IMG/VR virus record: IMGVR_UViG_3300031998_000052
Span: 1-64,000 of that record
DNA: 64,000 nt
Reading direction: 5' to 3' (one strand)
Source of the DNA: a virus
Taxonomy: Duplodnaviria > Caudoviricetes
Below are positions 19,258 through 40,643 of this stretch, one piece after another. Below the pieces are notes generated by a model that saw nothing but the letters and a program-made list of their open reading frames with translations, had not been told where the DNA came from and ran no database searches. How positions within the stretch are numbered: position 1 is the stretch's first letter; each line of letters starts with the position of its first letter. Both the position numbers and the translations under genes were made by a program.

Positions 19258-19803
19258 ATGAAAAAAGTTACAATCGAAATCCCTGAGGGAAAGGCATTGA
19301 AGTTCAAGGACGGCGCCTACGTCCTGGTAGATGACAACGTGATGGAGCGCATCAAGACCTTCGACGATGCGTGCCGCGAAGTGACCGGCAAGTCCGAGGA
19401 GGAGTGGCTGGCCGAGAATGAGACGGATAAGATGGAGCCGGACGTGCTGGCATACCTCAAGATGCGCATCATCGTTGCCGTCCTCAACGAAGGATGGAAA
19501 CCCACGTTCGAGGATGGTGAGACTCGGTACTACCCTTACTACTGGCACTACACCAAGTCCGAGTGGGAGGGCCTGAGCGCATCCAGGCGGAAGGAACTGG
19601 AGCCTACGGTCTGCCTCGTCGGCGGTAGCTCGTCTGACGGGTCGAAGTCGGGGCCGCTCTGCGTGAGCTCGCTCGACGCCTGGTCGGACGCGCGCTCGAG
19701 CCTCGGCGCCCGCCTTGCATTTAAGACGGGGGAACTCGCCCGTTATGCCGGGAAGCAGTTCTTCGACATCTTCAAGAAATTCTACTACGATGGAGTGCTT
19801 TGA
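19258..19803 (+). CDS. remote DGR target protein (181 aa) with a variable region near the C-terminus
   Basis: Encodes VCLVGGSSSDGSKSGPLCVSSLDAWSDARSSLGARLAF, collinear with the TR at 37743-37854. Confidence 0.85.
   Translation: MKKVTIEIPEGKALKFKDGAYVLVDDNVMERIKTFDDACREVTGKSEEEWLAENETDKMEPDVLAYLKMRIIVAVLNEGWKPTFEDGETRYYPYYWHYTKSEWEGLSASRRKELEPTVCLVGGSSSDGSKSGPLCVSSLDAWSDARSSLGARLAFKTGELARYAGKQFFDIFKKFYYDGVL
19608..19719 (+). repeat. DGR variable repeat VR2
   Basis: 112-nt ungapped match to the TR with 18 mismatches, 14 of them at TR adenines. All 12 mismatches in the 3' part are at TR adenines. Confidence 0.92.
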
Positions 19804-35523: not shown

Positions 35524-36537
35524 TTATATGTTACTAATTATCGTAGCCCAAGGTAAATTAGGAATATCTCCAGACGTAATAAAGGCATAAGATTGGCTGT
35601 TATTCACTCGAATAACGACCTCAATCAACCCTCCGTTTTTCGGCCTACGATACGTACTCAATGACGTCCTTATGTATGCTTGGTTCTCTATATTTATGGC
35701 GTCACTGCAAATATACCCGCCACTTGTCACGTTTATATGTAATCCGCCACCCCAATCATAACCAAACGGGAAATATGGGACAAGGAAAGAAAACCTACAT
35801 CCATCGAGATCGCTGTTCGCCGGTATATGAATATGAACACCATCGCTGTATTGTGACACCTGGCCGGTCAAGTCAATAAATTTTGCCGACGTGGATTTCA
35901 ACTGATAATGATTTTCTGTTGTATTATGAGACGAGCCATAGTTCACGACCTCAGAATACATATAAGTTAAATCGGAATTACCTAAAGCCACAAACGGTAT
36001 GCGAAGACCTCCAGCAAATTCACCGCCATTGCAAAATAGATTTCCATTTTTATCAAATTTGGTTTTTGCATTAGCAGCAAGCGTTGAACCGAGAAAAAGA
36101 GGATAGTTCGTATCACCGCCCATGTCTGCCACAACGGTATCACCATTTTTGACCTGAACGTGTTTTGCTACAAGGCTATTCACGTCGATATAGTCTGCTG
36201 ATATTGCCTGCGCCAGAAGAACCGGCGTTACTATCGGCTGGAACTGGTTTACATCCTCCCAGTACGTGTTGTCACTGAGAGGAATCAACTGATGGTCGGC
36301 CTGGTGTGTAATCTTGCATTTTCTGGCCACGAAAGACGAATCGCCAATCATAGCCATTCCCATATTGCAAGCCACGTCAATTATGCGAACACCATCCGTC
36401 TCAAGAGAAGAGTCGTTCCTGTATTCCTTTCCGTCTTCCCAGAGAGAAATACGATAGGTAATACCTCCATTTCCGGTATCACCCTTTCTGGCCCTTGCGA
36501 CAGTCTGACTGCCTTTAACCTTGACCGTGCCTGCCAT
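35524..36537 (-). CDS. putative tail/receptor-binding structural protein
   Basis: Start moved to MAGTVKVKG (36537). Lies at the distal end of the tail gene block and has an AT-richer C-terminal half. Confidence 0.5.
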   Translation of the reverse strand: MAGTVKVKGSQTVARARKGDTGNGGITYRISLWEDGKEYRNDSSLETDGVRIIDVACNMGMAMIGDSSFVARKCKITHQADHQLIPLSDNTYWEDVNQFQPIVTPVLLAQAISADYIDVNSLVAKHVQVKNGDTVVADMGGDTNYPLFLGSTLAANAKTKFDKNGNLFCNGGEFAGGLRIPFVALGNSDLTYMYSEVVNYGSSHNTTENHYQLKSTSAKFIDLTGQVSQYSDGVHIHIPANSDLDGCRFSFLVPYFPFGYDWGGGLHINVTSGGYICSDAINIENQAYIRTSLSTYRRPKNGGLIEVVIRVNNSQSYAFITSGDIPNLPWATIISNI

Positions 36538-36544
36538 AAGACTC

Positions 36545-36892
36545 CTAATTATCGAGAGAATCCATGACCACATGGGCAATCTCCTTTGCTTTAGCCCTCC
36601 ACTCCTGGAAAGCCTCCAGTTCGGCGGCGTGTTCGGGAGTATCGGAGCCATTGGCCAGGATAGCCTCCACCTGGTCCTGAGGGAACTTGTCGCGGACGAT
36701 AGCAGACACGATCTTGCCGTATTCGACGGCCCCTTCGATGTCCACGTTCTCGAAGACCAGGACTTCAATTTCCTCTCCGTCCACTTCCTTGGTCTCCGTG
36801 TCGTAATCGAAGTTGATGCGGGTGATAGCGCCCTCGCGGAGCACTACGACGCCAGCGGGGACTTCCCCGTTGTAATCAGCATATACTTTCAT
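36545..36892 (-). CDS. hypothetical protein downstream of the DGR RT locus
   Basis: 115 aa ending ELEAFQEWRAKAKEIA; a similar ORF is recalled next to RT in Bacteroidetes phage DGRs. Confidence 0.6.
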   Translation of the reverse strand: MKVYADYNGEVPAGVVVLREGAITRINFDYDTETKEVDGEEIEVLVFENVDIEGAVEYGKIVSAIVRDKFPQDQVEAILANGSDTPEHAAELEAFQEWRAKAKEIAHVVMDSLDN

Positions 36893-37459
36893 AAGTCTAT
36901 AAATTTGTACGTGAATTTTCCTCTTCCGAGATCGACGCGGGTGATGCCCACGTTTTCGACCGGAAACACTTTTTGACCGGCCTGCTCTGCCTTCCGGCAG
37001 TCATCCAGGATGTTCTTCATCTGGAACGAACTGATGGTGAACTTAATCTTCTCTCCGTCTTCCTTCTTCACCATGACCATGTACCGGTCGGTGTTCATCT
37101 TGGACGGGTCCCGCAGGTCCGGCGTTGGCACGTTGGCCTCAAAATCAAGGACCGTGAGGCGCTGGTTCAGCACCTCAAGGATGTTACCTTTCCGGCACTC
37201 AAAGAACTTCTTCCCGTCCTTTGAACTGGCCTTCTCGATAGATATTCCTTTCTCAGCGAATCCCATGATTGGTTGTCCTGTTATTGTTTTCCAGAGTTGG
37301 GCGCAGTCTCCATACATGCACAAGCCCCGGTAACTGTCAATAATTTCCTTTCCTCTTCGACCGCTTGGCCTTGCCGCCTTTCTGAGAGCGCTGGATGGCT
37401 AACCGCAAGTTATCCTCGTCCGCAACCTTCTCCAGGATATGCCCTACTTTTTTCGTCAT
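36889..37459 (-). pseudogene. DGR reverse transcriptase remnant: N-terminus joined to C-terminus, catalytic core deleted
   Basis: The ATG at 37459 gives MTKKVGHILEKVADEDNLRLAIQRSQKGGKAKRS (DGR-RT N-terminus), stopping at 37337. An overlapping frame gives KEIIDSYRGLCMYGDCAQLWKTITG (DGR-RT C-terminus) and continues without a stop into the 125-aa domain 36889-37266. No YxDD region lies in between. Confidence 0.8.
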
Positions 37460-37742
37460 ACAAAGATACGCATTTTTTTATTCCCTGCAATAGTGATACT
37501 GCCCGGGACGTTCGAGAGTGTCCATCGGGGTTCCACGCACGACGCTTACAACGCGCCGGTCAATGGGAACCACACGCTCGGACAAACCTACATTAGCCCC
37601 GCTCGCAGGCCCATACCTCCGGGCCGCTCTCCCGCATACGAGATGTTCTGACTCTCCGGCGCGACCTGCCGCCGGGGTCAAGGCTGAGGAGGTTCGCCGG
37701 CCGGTGTCTATCCGGCAAGGCGATGAAACAGGGTTTTCACTT

Positions 37743-37854
37743 TGTATGGCGGGCGCCGATGTTCGAGTTCGCGTTCGACCAGGCGTTGTTCGAGTTCACG
37801 TAGAGCGGCCCCGACTCCGACCCGATAATCGAGCCACCGCCGACGAGGCAGACC
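37743..37854 (-). repeat. DGR template repeat (TR)
   Basis: Lies outside any gene and is AAC-rich: GTC TGC CTC GTC GGC GGT GGC TCG ATT ATC GGG TCG GAG TCG GGG CCG CTC TAC GTG AAC TCG AAC AAC GCC TGG TCG AAC GCG AAC TCG AAC ATC GGC GCC CGC CAT ACA. Confidence 0.92.
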
Positions 37855-37997
37855 GAAAGAACTGGAACCACCGAGCGTACTATACCCCCTCCTGCCTACC
37901 ACAAATCGGGCGCGGATGCAGCCGCCTTAGGAGCGACTGCCCCGTGCGTCCGTTGTGGATTTGGGTTGGTAAAGATGTTTCAAAGAACTACTGATTT

Positions 37998-39314
37998 TTA
38001 CAGATCGGCCCCATCTACAATGGTCACTGGACCATAATATGCAGGGCGGGCGCCGAGGGCCGAGGCCGAGCCCAACCAGGAGTAGGTCGAGTTCACGCAG
38101 AGCGGCCCCGACTGCGACCCGTAATTCGAGCCGCCGCCGACAAGGCAGACCTGGCCTGTGGCGTTGCCATAGAAGTAGTCAGACCAGGACTTGTTGCTGT
38201 CGCCACCCGTCACGGAAGTGGCAATCATGTCGAAGTATTCACCCTTGGTCATGACCTTGACATATCCCGAGGTGGTCAGGCGAGTCAGTTCGCGTAACTC
38301 ACCGTCCGGATGGGAGGCAAGTTCGGAGGAAGAAGGAAGGCGGTTGCCCTTGTAGATATACACCTCGTCACCGTCCTGCCCGGAGTTGCCGCTGTTACCG
38401 AAGAAGATACCCTGGACAAACTCCCACTGGAGGTTCCACCAGTCCTCGATACCCAGAACAGAGACGTGCGTGGAATCGGCGTTGGCACCAGATGCGATGG
38501 CCACCGTACCGGAGGCATCACCCAGGTCCTTCGTCAGACCGGTAGTCTTGAGGACGGTCGATGCGTTCACGGTATCCCAGGAGAGACCGGAGGCACCACC
38601 TACGCCCTGACCGAGGCTGGCCTGTGCGTTTGCGTTACCCTGGGCCTCAGACAGGCACATAATCTCGAACCAGCGCAGGCAGTCGTAGTCCTTGAGGCCC
38701 CAGTTGGCACCGAAGGACTGGGCTGCGCTGAAATAGTCGCTGATGGTCTTGGACGAGGTGTCGAAGGTGACACCGGAACGGGACACCAGTTTTCCGCTGG
38801 CCAGGGAGCCTTTGTAGGCGCCGATGACCATCCGCTTTCCATTGTCCGCGTTCGCGAGATAGTGGCCGGAGATGGGGAACTCTGAGCACCACAGGTACGG
38901 GATGCTCGTCTCGGCGTCCGTCACCACCAGGTAGTACAGACGGGGAGCGATGACAACCACGGAACCCCTGGTCTCGTCCAGGGTCGTACCGTCGGCGAAG
39001 ACACCGGAGTTGTTCTTGTGCAGTTTGGCCGCACGACCGTTGGCATCCATCAGATACCGGCCCACCTTTGCCTTGTAGGAGTTGTAAGCCGCGATGTTGC
39101 CGATCATGCCCCAGGCGGGGCTGGTCTGCGTTGCGTCCTTGAGAGGGAATCCCCACGCTACCTGGTGGAGAAGTTCCGCCTGGCCTTCGTTCATGGCCGT
39201 CTCGAAGTCCTCCATCGAGATTCGGCGGATGGACCCGCCGATCTCGACGATGAGGCTGTTCGATTTCAGCATGGACGAAACAGACGTTGCTGTTGCTAAA
39301 TTCTTGTTTGCCAT
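37998..39314 (-). CDS. DGR target 1: tail-associated protein with a C-terminal C-type-lectin-like variable domain
   Basis: IGAYKG, GIEDWWNLQWEFVQG and terminal VCLVGGGSNYGSQSGPLCVNSTYSWLGSASALGARPAY; sits in the tail gene block. Confidence 0.88.
   Translation of the reverse strand: MANKNLATATSVSSMLKSNSLIVEIGGSIRRISMEDFETAMNEGQAELLHQVAWGFPLKDATQTSPAWGMIGNIAAYNSYKAKVGRYLMDANGRAAKLHKNNSGVFADGTTLDETRGSVVVIAPRLYYLVVTDAETSIPYLWCSEFPISGHYLANADNGKRMVIGAYKGSLASGKLVSRSGVTFDTSSKTISDYFSAAQSFGANWGLKDYDCLRWFEIMCLSEAQGNANAQASLGQGVGGASGLSWDTVNASTVLKTTGLTKDLGDASGTVAIASGANADSTHVSVLGIEDWWNLQWEFVQGIFFGNSGNSGQDGDEVYIYKGNRLPSSSELASHPDGELRELTRLTTSGYVKVMTKGEYFDMIATSVTGGDSNKSWSDYFYGNATGQVCLVGGGSNYGSQSGPLCVNSTYSWLGSASALGARPAYYGPVTIVDGADL
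38040..38151 (-). repeat. DGR variable repeat VR1
   Basis: 112-nt ungapped match to the TR with 21 mismatches, 13 of them at TR adenines. Confidence 0.9.
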
Positions 39315-39330
39315 AACTTATGAAATTGGT

Positions 39331-40434
39331 TTACATTGTCCATTCAACCTCGGACACAACAACCACGTCCTTCTCGACGCCCTGGATGTCGGTCTCCGTG
39401 GTGGTTATGCTCACCAGGTTCGTGGCCCCGGTGTTGTAACTGGAGGCGGGAACCCTCTTGCGCTCCACCCAGCCGTCCGGGTCCATGACGTGAGACACCC
39501 AGTGGGCGGACGTGATGGTGGTCAGTTCGGTGTTGGTCCGCACGTTCACCACGTAAGCCTGGAGATAGACCGGCTTGTTCGCGTCAACCTCGCGGTTGGG
39601 CGTTCCGGTGGTCGTTCCGTCTGAGTTGCAGTAACGGTGCTCCACGTGATAGTCATCGAGCGTGTCGATGATGCGGATACCGGACCGGTAGATGGGGTCT
39701 GCTCCGTTCTCGTAGTCCGTCTGGCTCTTGTAGAACTCCGCGATGAACAGTTGGGTGCCGTCCACGTCCGCACGGGTGACGGTGATGCTGGCCTGGCCCA
39801 GTTTCTCGGACCAGTGCTTATCGTCCTTGTACCACTTCACGTAGTAGCCGCTCTGGACGGTTCCACCCAGGTACAGGGCCGTGTTCACGGTGGTCTGGGT
39901 GACGGATGCGGTCAACTGCTCGGTGGTCGCATTGATCGAGCCGTAGTACGAGGAGGCACCGACGCTCTGGATCTGAATGTCCACGCTCTTGGTCAGGTTG
40001 TACTCGACACCGGCCCCTGCGGCCACGCAGGTATAGGTGAGGGAGTCGGAGGCCACGTTCGTTGTGCTCGCCAGGTCCCCGATGATTGCAAGGGCGCCAC
40101 TCTGGGCCATTGCAAAACGACCGTCGTTGCTGGCCTTCGTGTACACGACACCACCGATAGTGACCGTGCTGCCCGTGAAGGTCAAGGCCACGTTGTTGTA
40201 GGACCAGGCGTGATGGCTCAGCGTGACTGTGTTGCCACGGGCCGACGTGACATGGGGTGTGATGATAGGAGTCACCTGGCCGGTCCCGGTTCCCCAGGAC
40301 GGGGTGACTACGCCGGTAACGGGGTCAACGCCCTGGTAGAGCGGCACGCCGTTGTTACCGAAAGTGATGAAGAAGGTATCACCGTTGCGCAGGCGCTTGA
40401 CCGTGATACTGTTTTGTGCGCTGTAATTGTCCAT
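39331..40434 (-). CDS. tail structural protein (beta-rich, Ig-like)
   Basis: Thr/Val/Ser-rich 367 aa in the tail block. Confidence 0.6.
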   Translation of the reverse strand: MDNYSAQNSITVKRLRNGDTFFITFGNNGVPLYQGVDPVTGVVTPSWGTGTGQVTPIITPHVTSARGNTVTLSHHAWSYNNVALTFTGSTVTIGGVVYTKASNDGRFAMAQSGALAIIGDLASTTNVASDSLTYTCVAAGAGVEYNLTKSVDIQIQSVGASSYYGSINATTEQLTASVTQTTVNTALYLGGTVQSGYYVKWYKDDKHWSEKLGQASITVTRADVDGTQLFIAEFYKSQTDYENGADPIYRSGIRIIDTLDDYHVEHRYCNSDGTTTGTPNREVDANKPVYLQAYVVNVRTNTELTTITSAHWVSHVMDPDGWVERKRVPASSYNTGATNLVSITTTETDIQGVEKDVVVVSEVEWTM

Positions 40435-40643
40435 TACCAGTCTCCTTTTATGATTAGTTGCTTGATTTCAAATACGTCATAGATCTTCCCGTCGATGACA
40501 CTCGCCCGTTCCTCAAGCGTCTCTCCGGGCAGGATGTTCAGGTCCTTCTCGTTGACTATGACGCGATCGCCGTTGACACGGCACCCCTTGATGGAGATAC
40601 CGGCGCCAGCGGTCTTCTGTCGGTCTGCTATGATGTACAACAT
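40434..40643 (-). CDS. small hypothetical tail-block protein
   Basis: 69 aa with overlapping neighbours. Confidence 0.55.
   Translation of the reverse strand: MLYIIADRQKTAGAGISIKGCRVNGDRVIVNEKDLNILPGETLEERASVIDGKIYDVFEIKQLIIKGDW

Follow-up and report, generated by a model that had tools for sequence, protein, structure and literature searches.

A probably frozen and decaying DGR, short of its RT core, in a Quimby-like Bacteroidales phage

Introduction

What becomes of a DGR when its RT is lost? The question is raised by a locus in which a TR, a spacer and two VRs stand together with two short remnants of a DGR RT. It lies in a 64,000-nucleotide stretch of viral DNA (the window; positions 1 to 64,000 of the IMG/VR record IMGVR_UViG_3300031998_000052). 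The complete record is 76,630 bp long, is estimated to be a complete genome and belongs to a Bacteroidales gut phage. A first-pass annotation, made from the letters alone, described the copy as a non-autonomous DGR and offered two readings: retrohoming had been frozen, or the element was served in trans, like a MITE, by an RT encoded elsewhere. DGR surveys generally begin from the RT gene, so RT-less remnants of this kind would be missed and under-counted. Here we compare the locus with its intact relatives and conclude that it is probably a recently inactivated, decaying and frozen DGR of a known type.

Results

Layout of the DGR cassette

The genes of the DGR cassette are on the minus strand throughout, and the gene order (target gene, TR, RT, C-terminal domain, 115-aa gene) is the same in the window and in the clade of relatives with a three-frame RT described below. 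The second target lies elsewhere, on the plus strand. The features, in window coordinates, are:

37998..39314, minus strand: target gene 1, 438 aa, tail-protein-like (phrog_5302 'tail protein', E=3.4e-35), with VR1 at its 3' end
38045..38151, minus strand: VR1, a direct repeat of the TR with 81-82% identity
37743..37854, minus strand: TR, the repeat shared with VR1 and VR2, with five adenines altered in its 5' third
37460..37742, minus strand: 283-nt spacer from the TR to the RT start, 98.6-100% identical to sister loci L098/L099
37461-37468, minus strand: TATCTTTG, inside the spacer, immediately upstream of the RT ATG
37337..37459, minus strand: RT N-terminal remnant ORF, 40 aa, made of 35 RT codons, 5 out-of-frame codons and a stop
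37355..37359, minus strand: deletion junction, the CGAAG microhomology core, placed by sister alignment
37267..37350, minus strand: RT C-terminal remnant, 28 codons, aligning with the end of sister-RT frame C
36889..37266, minus strand: 125-aa C-terminal domain ('X'), a free-standing ORF with its ATG at 37266 (phrog_19665)
19258..19803, plus strand: target gene 2, 181 aa, with VR2 at its 3' end
19607..19714, plus strand: VR2, a repeat of the TR, 18 kb from the cassette

Both VRs thus sit at the 3' ends of ORFs. The TR is positioned 297 bp downstream of VR1, and orthologues of target gene 1 are found directly upstream of the TR in all sisters. A Pfam search with target gene 1 returned no match, as did a blastn search of the locus against the GenBank phage collection. 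The target protein and the 125-aa protein served as queries for collecting relatives, together with look-ups of exact proteins.

All the parts that the first-pass annotation had listed as retained (TR, spacer, both VRs, TATCTTTG and an intact 125-aa extension with its own ATG) could be located. Its treatment of TATCTTTG as a general retained cis part has to be given up: as a candidate conserved cis element, the motif is present in 3 of 50 distinct upstream sequences and is confined to the nearest relatives. TAnnTTTG is retained in the nearest subclade only. More distant three-frame loci (for example L024:2950-3000, L021 and L030) repeatedly show, 15-40 nt upstream of the RT ATG, a short hairpin whose loop is CUGAA-rich (GGTCTGAAGAAGACA-like). 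It may be part of the DGR RNA spacer; another sequence occupies this place in the window's subclade.

An 874-bp deletion spans the catalytic segment of the RT

The window lacks 874 bp of DGR RT relative to the sister loci L096, L098 and L099, which are 98.5-100% identical to it on both flanks of the gap. The missing stretch begins at RT codon ~36, stops short of the final 28 RT codons ahead of the C-terminal domain, and takes in both +1 frameshift sites together with the catalytic segment, whose DD motif was located in the sisters. The 35 residues left at the N terminus are identical to those of L098/L099 (E=1.8e-16 against a sister RT). The 28 C-terminal codons read without a stop into the 125-aa ORF, in a frame different from that of the N-terminal remnant. 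In the intact sisters, CGAAG occurs twice, 874 bp apart, within an imperfect direct repeat (10/13 positions match); the window retains one of the two copies. The first-pass annotation had set the junction at around 37345-37360, a range that contains the core, and the sister alignment that it recommended for sizing the deletion and seeking microhomology gave both answers.

With RVT_1 (PF00078), phrog_1423 and the sister's own RT ORF as queries, no other RT was found in the 76.6-kb record. PF00078 alone is a weak test here, as even the intact RTs of this clade score only E 0.0012-0.017 on RVT_1, and the search was for this reason repeated with the other two queries. Where a DGR is defined by an RT with an intact catalytic core, the window offers 35 + 28 codons. 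The core of the RT has been cleanly deleted, the gap covering the catalytic segment, and catalysis by this copy is impossible, in keeping with what was first proposed.

Intact relatives encode the RT in three frames

In the intact relatives, the RT is divided into three segments that lie in three frames and are linked by two +1 shifts. Segment A comprises ~195 residues, segment B ~88 residues with the catalytic DD motif, and segment C the thumb and the 125-aa domain. This arrangement is present in all but a few of 45 viral loci, across segment A identities from 100% to 36%, and in nearly all of 25 genomic loci; cultured isolates that carry it include Bacteroides acidifaciens, B. intestinalis, B. 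oleiciplenus and Paramuribaculum intestinale. All three segments are conserved as protein, and more distant RTs (≤31% identity) are encoded in one frame. A three-frame RT with two proposed programmed frameshifts has already been published for Quimbyvirus (Benler 2021, PMC8008677).

This organization bears on how the window's remnants are to be read. The N- and C-terminal parts of the RT differ in frame in intact relatives, so the out-of-frame join is not purely the product of the deletion; loss of 874 bp (1 mod 3) leaves the two parts one base out of register. The earlier description of about 34 and about 30 codons joined out of frame is therefore close in its counts (35 and 28 were found), while the frame offset that it attributed to the join is partly inherited.

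Both +1 shift sites (for example L004:8436-8450 and L004:8700-8720) have AGG or CGG in the old frame in most of ~50 distinct sequences. AAG-AGG-N is the most frequent form, and the overlapping GGN supplies the new frame's first conserved Gly. Near its shift site, each of frames B and C also opens with an ATG, and in one contig product (P0028) shift site 1 is fused in frame. A 'hungry codon' cause of the +1 shifts was considered and set aside as speculation, AGG not being rare in the phage's long ORFs (9.3 per 1000). One relative has an additional frame change within segment B (L029:3560-3890; frames 1, 3, 1) and 4 non-adenine TR-VR mismatches, and is possibly another decaying RT.

The junction recurs, and a second RT core was lost independently

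The exact 40-aa remnant product, which can arise only from this junction, is also encoded in ENA ERZ27257204 and Logan SRR9008937. The adjoining target gene of the ENA contig encodes 424 aa, not 438 aa; the Logan contig has the same downstream gene order as the window. A further contig, L085 (Logan SRR17889447; L085:2935-3215), has the same junction, including the AGG directly after the core, with a variant of the 40-aa ORF. L085 additionally lacks the equivalent of window 37865-37521, which removes the TR and most of the spacer, and of window 37241-36923 (~319 bp), which removes most of the 125-aa domain; its RT stubs carry further changes and a frameshift. Losses that take in the TR and the greater part of both spacer and extension indicate that the cis parts are not maintained by selection. 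Scans of viral and metagenome contigs with junction words of 25 and 24 nt gave no match, the window's own record being possibly excluded from these scans and L085 differing by one base within the word.

A second deletion is seen in L048/L049 (IMG/VR 3300027374_000051 and 3300027542_000004), which are one sequence in two samples, one of the contigs being 96.6 kb long. Compared with the 99.8%-identical L117, a prophage copy in Paramuribaculum intestinale DSM 100749, this sequence has lost 384 bp between repeats that overlap by 16 nt at the junction (L048:3594-3609). What is lost corresponds exactly to segment B, and the C-terminal domain is left standing as a separate ORF. TR and VR1 of L048/L049 differ by 14 adenine and 0 non-adenine mismatches. 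As this deletion is independent of the one in the window, clean loss of the RT core has occurred at least twice in the clade.

The present TR has not been copied into either VR

In most three-frame loci, TR and VR1 show 0 mismatches at non-adenine positions. Among the close sisters, this is the case for 7 of 10, with 1-2 such mismatches in the remaining three. Mismatches in the relatives are mostly confined to adenines, which speaks for the published view of an active three-frame RT. Adenine bias is also strong in the window's own pairs, with 11-15 adenine mismatches each. VR1 differs from the window TR by 8 non-adenine mismatches and by 11-14 adenine mismatches, the latter number varying with the alignment span used. 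VR2 differs from the window TR by 4 non-adenine mismatches, each at one of the altered adenines of the TR. We also compared both VRs with a consensus TR, defined as the TR common to four close intact sisters, from which three more sisters deviate by one non-adenine base each. Against this consensus, VR1 has 14 adenine and 5 non-adenine mismatches, and VR2 has 14 adenine and 0 non-adenine mismatches.

The window TR differs from the consensus at five positions, all of them consensus adenines (hypergeometric P=0.00025). In the 5' third of the TR (window 37812-37854), AAC has become GGC, AAT-AAC has become ATT-ATC and AAG has become GAG, with no other base altered. This five-adenine pattern looks RT-made, or like the result of VR-to-TR gene conversion; since all five changes fall at adenines, an RT would have been needed at some time. 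The five lineage-specific changes are absent from both VR1 and VR2, which means that the last rewriting of either VR came before the TR changed. The fit of VR2 to the consensus TR, free of non-adenine mismatches, indicates that VR2 was rewritten not long ago, and VR1 appears to have drifted through ordinary substitution. The VR1 of L085 departs from the consensus TR by 11 non-adenine mismatches, some of them in a run that alters a conserved Trp codon. The annotation's suggestion of frozen retrohoming fits these data, both in the non-adenine mismatches and in the VRs that lack the TR's changes.

The C-terminal RT stub has two window-specific changes, Trp to Leu and His to Gln, and the Trp is kept in nearly every locus of the three-frame clade examined. 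No change as yet separates the N-terminal stub or the 125-aa domain from the matching parts of the nearest sisters, which argues that the deletion is recent. Relaxed constraint on the C-terminal stub, considered on the basis of dN/dS against L004 and L005, was rejected because closer intact sisters show that most of the differences predate the deletion. The 125-aa domain has too few changes for judging selection after the deletion.

Divergence across window 36500-40500 is mosaic. Against L004, pS rises from 0.075-0.16 in the tail genes to 0.4-0.5 in the RT and beyond; the comparison with L096 shows the opposite trend, with 95.9% identity upstream and 98.6% downstream (L093-L096 were also compared). 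A recombination breakpoint is located near the TR/RT.

A frozen DGR and the alternatives to it

Considered together, these data make it probable that the window carries a DGR of known type that was recently inactivated and is now frozen and decaying in a Quimby-like Bacteroidales phage. Inactivation would have come about by the 874-bp deletion, between short imperfect direct repeats that share the CGAAG core and are placed in Lys/Arg-rich, purine-rich coding sequence, presumably through replication slippage or microhomology-mediated recombination. Retrohoming would then have stopped, so that the two target proteins would be frozen and now changing by ordinary mutation, and the RT stubs, TR, spacer and C-terminal domain would be neutral leftovers in the course of being lost. 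Some observations stand against a frozen element: VR2 has been rewritten fairly recently, the five adenine changes in the TR point to an RT at work at some stage, and the window and L085, which share one junction, differ in VR1 at 13/22 TR-adenine sites. The VR1 differences reflect either recombination of target alleles or some homing after the deletion.

Continued activity could in principle be supplied from outside. In the MITE-like version put forward in the first-pass annotation, the window TR would be copied into the VRs by the RT of a co-resident prophage or of some element in the host. The TR, the spacer, the GC-rich 3' end of the repeat and both VRs are intact in the window, near-identical phages with an intact RT are present in other assemblies, and for a Bordetella phage avd, TR and brt work when supplied in trans from a plasmid (PMC5758913). 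However, neither VR agrees with the window TR at the five altered sites, and VR1 adds another five non-adenine mismatches; the phage record holds no second RT that our searches could find, and the TR and most of the spacer are gone from L085, which has the same junction. A non-autonomous element would keep its cis parts under selection and remain active after loss of the enzyme; in the window, the VRs have not been rewritten from the present TR. Trans service of this kind is thus very improbable, and our data do not support it. A variant in which RT-less carriers are 'cheaters' is also unlikely, though less so. Here the RT and TR of co-infecting, near-identical sisters would occasionally rewrite the window's VRs, making the window's own TR dispensable. 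If true, this would explain why VR2 fits the consensus sister TR perfectly and the window TR does not, why the junction carriers differ at so many adenine sites in VR1, and why L085 can dispense with its TR; the repeat ends are also identical between the window and the sisters. Yet the non-adenine mismatches of VR1 to the consensus TR, five in the window and 11 in L085, speak against recent rewriting, and rewriting before the deletion explains the fit of VR2 equally. Frequent recombination, as seen in the mosaic divergence, can shuffle VR alleles; with divergence varying several-fold along the locus, recombination of target alleles accounts for the VR1 differences as well as rewriting by sisters does.

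Two further readings concern the junction itself. The 35 N-terminal residues, the 28 C-terminal residues and the domain might be fused by a putative +1 shift into a new small gene: the junction (window 37351-37360) reads AAG-AGG-A, the commonest shift-site motif, the same AGG is present in L085, and the shift sites of relatives most often have AAG-AGG-N with a Gly codon next in the +1 frame. Against this, L085 destroys the fused frame and most of the domain, frameshifting at the motif is itself only putative, and AGG is not rare in the phage's own ORFs. We consider a new gene extremely improbable, and the AAG-AGG-A at the junction may be coincidental. The record is a metagenome assembly, and an RT intact in the real genome might have been collapsed by the assembler. 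The repeats, however, share only five exact bases, far below assembler word sizes, which makes such a collapse impossible, and the junction is found in three other ENA/Logan assemblies, one with extra deletions and substitutions of its own. An assembly artefact therefore has next to nothing in its favor. An RT core lost by deletion, followed by decay of what was left, remains our preferred account of the locus.

The 125-aa domain is probably a nucleic-acid-binding module of the RT

The 125-aa protein is identical in at least 22 contigs, most of which have an intact RT, and a profile search with the domain recovered 242 representative clusters. Single-ORF proteins of 410-583 aa bear the domain at their C-terminal end, and RVT_1 was detected in 9/9 of those scanned. 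What had been called an extension is thus a usual C-terminal domain in this RT family. Each three-frame locus examined has a Met that coincides with the domain boundary or immediately precedes it, and nearly all single-ORF proteins inspected have one near the boundary, which is compatible with a putative internal start.

Pfam and PDB sequence searches with the domain gave nothing significant, and Foldseek gave nothing at E≤0.001. The AF2 model (mean pLDDT 77.6) comprises a beta-barrel and one helix. Its best fold matches by VIA-align are OB-fold single-strand-binding proteins, led by the PRD1 SSB P12 (Z 5.5, rmsd 3.2, 89 residues aligned) and including Rim1 (Z 5.0), with many SSB/PriB structures at Z 4-5. 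An Atlas feature score of 0.95 links the domain to viral clusters with PF17427 on 21% of members (13-21% across clusters), and its language-model neighbors include viral clusters partly annotated as phi29-type SSB. The model and these similarities suggest that the domain is a probable nucleic-acid-binding module of the RT, possibly SSB-like. Its near-complete loss in L085 argues against an essential role outside the DGR.

Discussion

A pseudogenised DGR is expected biology, and the DGR concerned is of a known type. What the locus adds is a natural series, running from the intact sisters, through the window with its RT core deleted, to L085, in which RT core, TR and C-terminal domain are all deleted. 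Together with L048/L049, this series shows the death of phage DGRs via clean microhomology deletions in purine-rich, Lys/Arg-coding stretches. The matched active and dead genomes allow one to ask what becomes of receptor-binding genes once hypermutation stops. As comparative evidence, the series also favors a functional three-frame RT, as has been proposed in print.

The closest known system is the DGR of Quimbyvirus and the 'Quimbyviridae' (Benler et al. 2021, Microbiome 9:78, PMC8008677). In both cases the phage is a Bacteroidales phage of ~75 kb, VR1 lies in a gene that follows the tail-fibre genes, and VR2 lies distally, on the opposite strand, in a small non-structural gene. The window's intact relatives share with Quimbyvirus an RT in three overlapping frames; in contrast, the window itself is without the RT core and both shift sites. 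The counterparts of the targets in Quimbyvirus have C-type lectin domains (Benler 2021, PMC8008677). The likeness of the window to the 'Quimbyviridae' is one of genome size (76.6 kb) and DGR layout alone. The N terminus of its RT is only ~44-45% identical to the copies in Bacteroides prophages, and its nearest genomic relatives are in Cryptobacteroides and Bacteroidales MAGs.

The DGR of Bordetella BPP-1 (brt, avd, TR, mtd) has the same basic design, in which a tail receptor-binding gene has at its 3' end a VR fed by a TR, change is specific to adenines and the repeat has a GC-rich end. It differs in that the window has no avd-like gene between target and TR and has two targets. In addition, the RT of the window's clade bears a C-terminal beta-barrel domain and is read in three frames in the relatives, and is deleted in the window.

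The window also resembles the degenerate or 'inactive' DGRs of a metagenome survey (Roux et al. 2021, PMC8144416), in that its VRs are without sign of current diversification. That survey judged inactivity by the variation seen in populations around DGRs that have an RT (Roux et al. 2021, PMC8144416). In contrast, the window shows the cause of inactivity, and the later steps of decay, directly.
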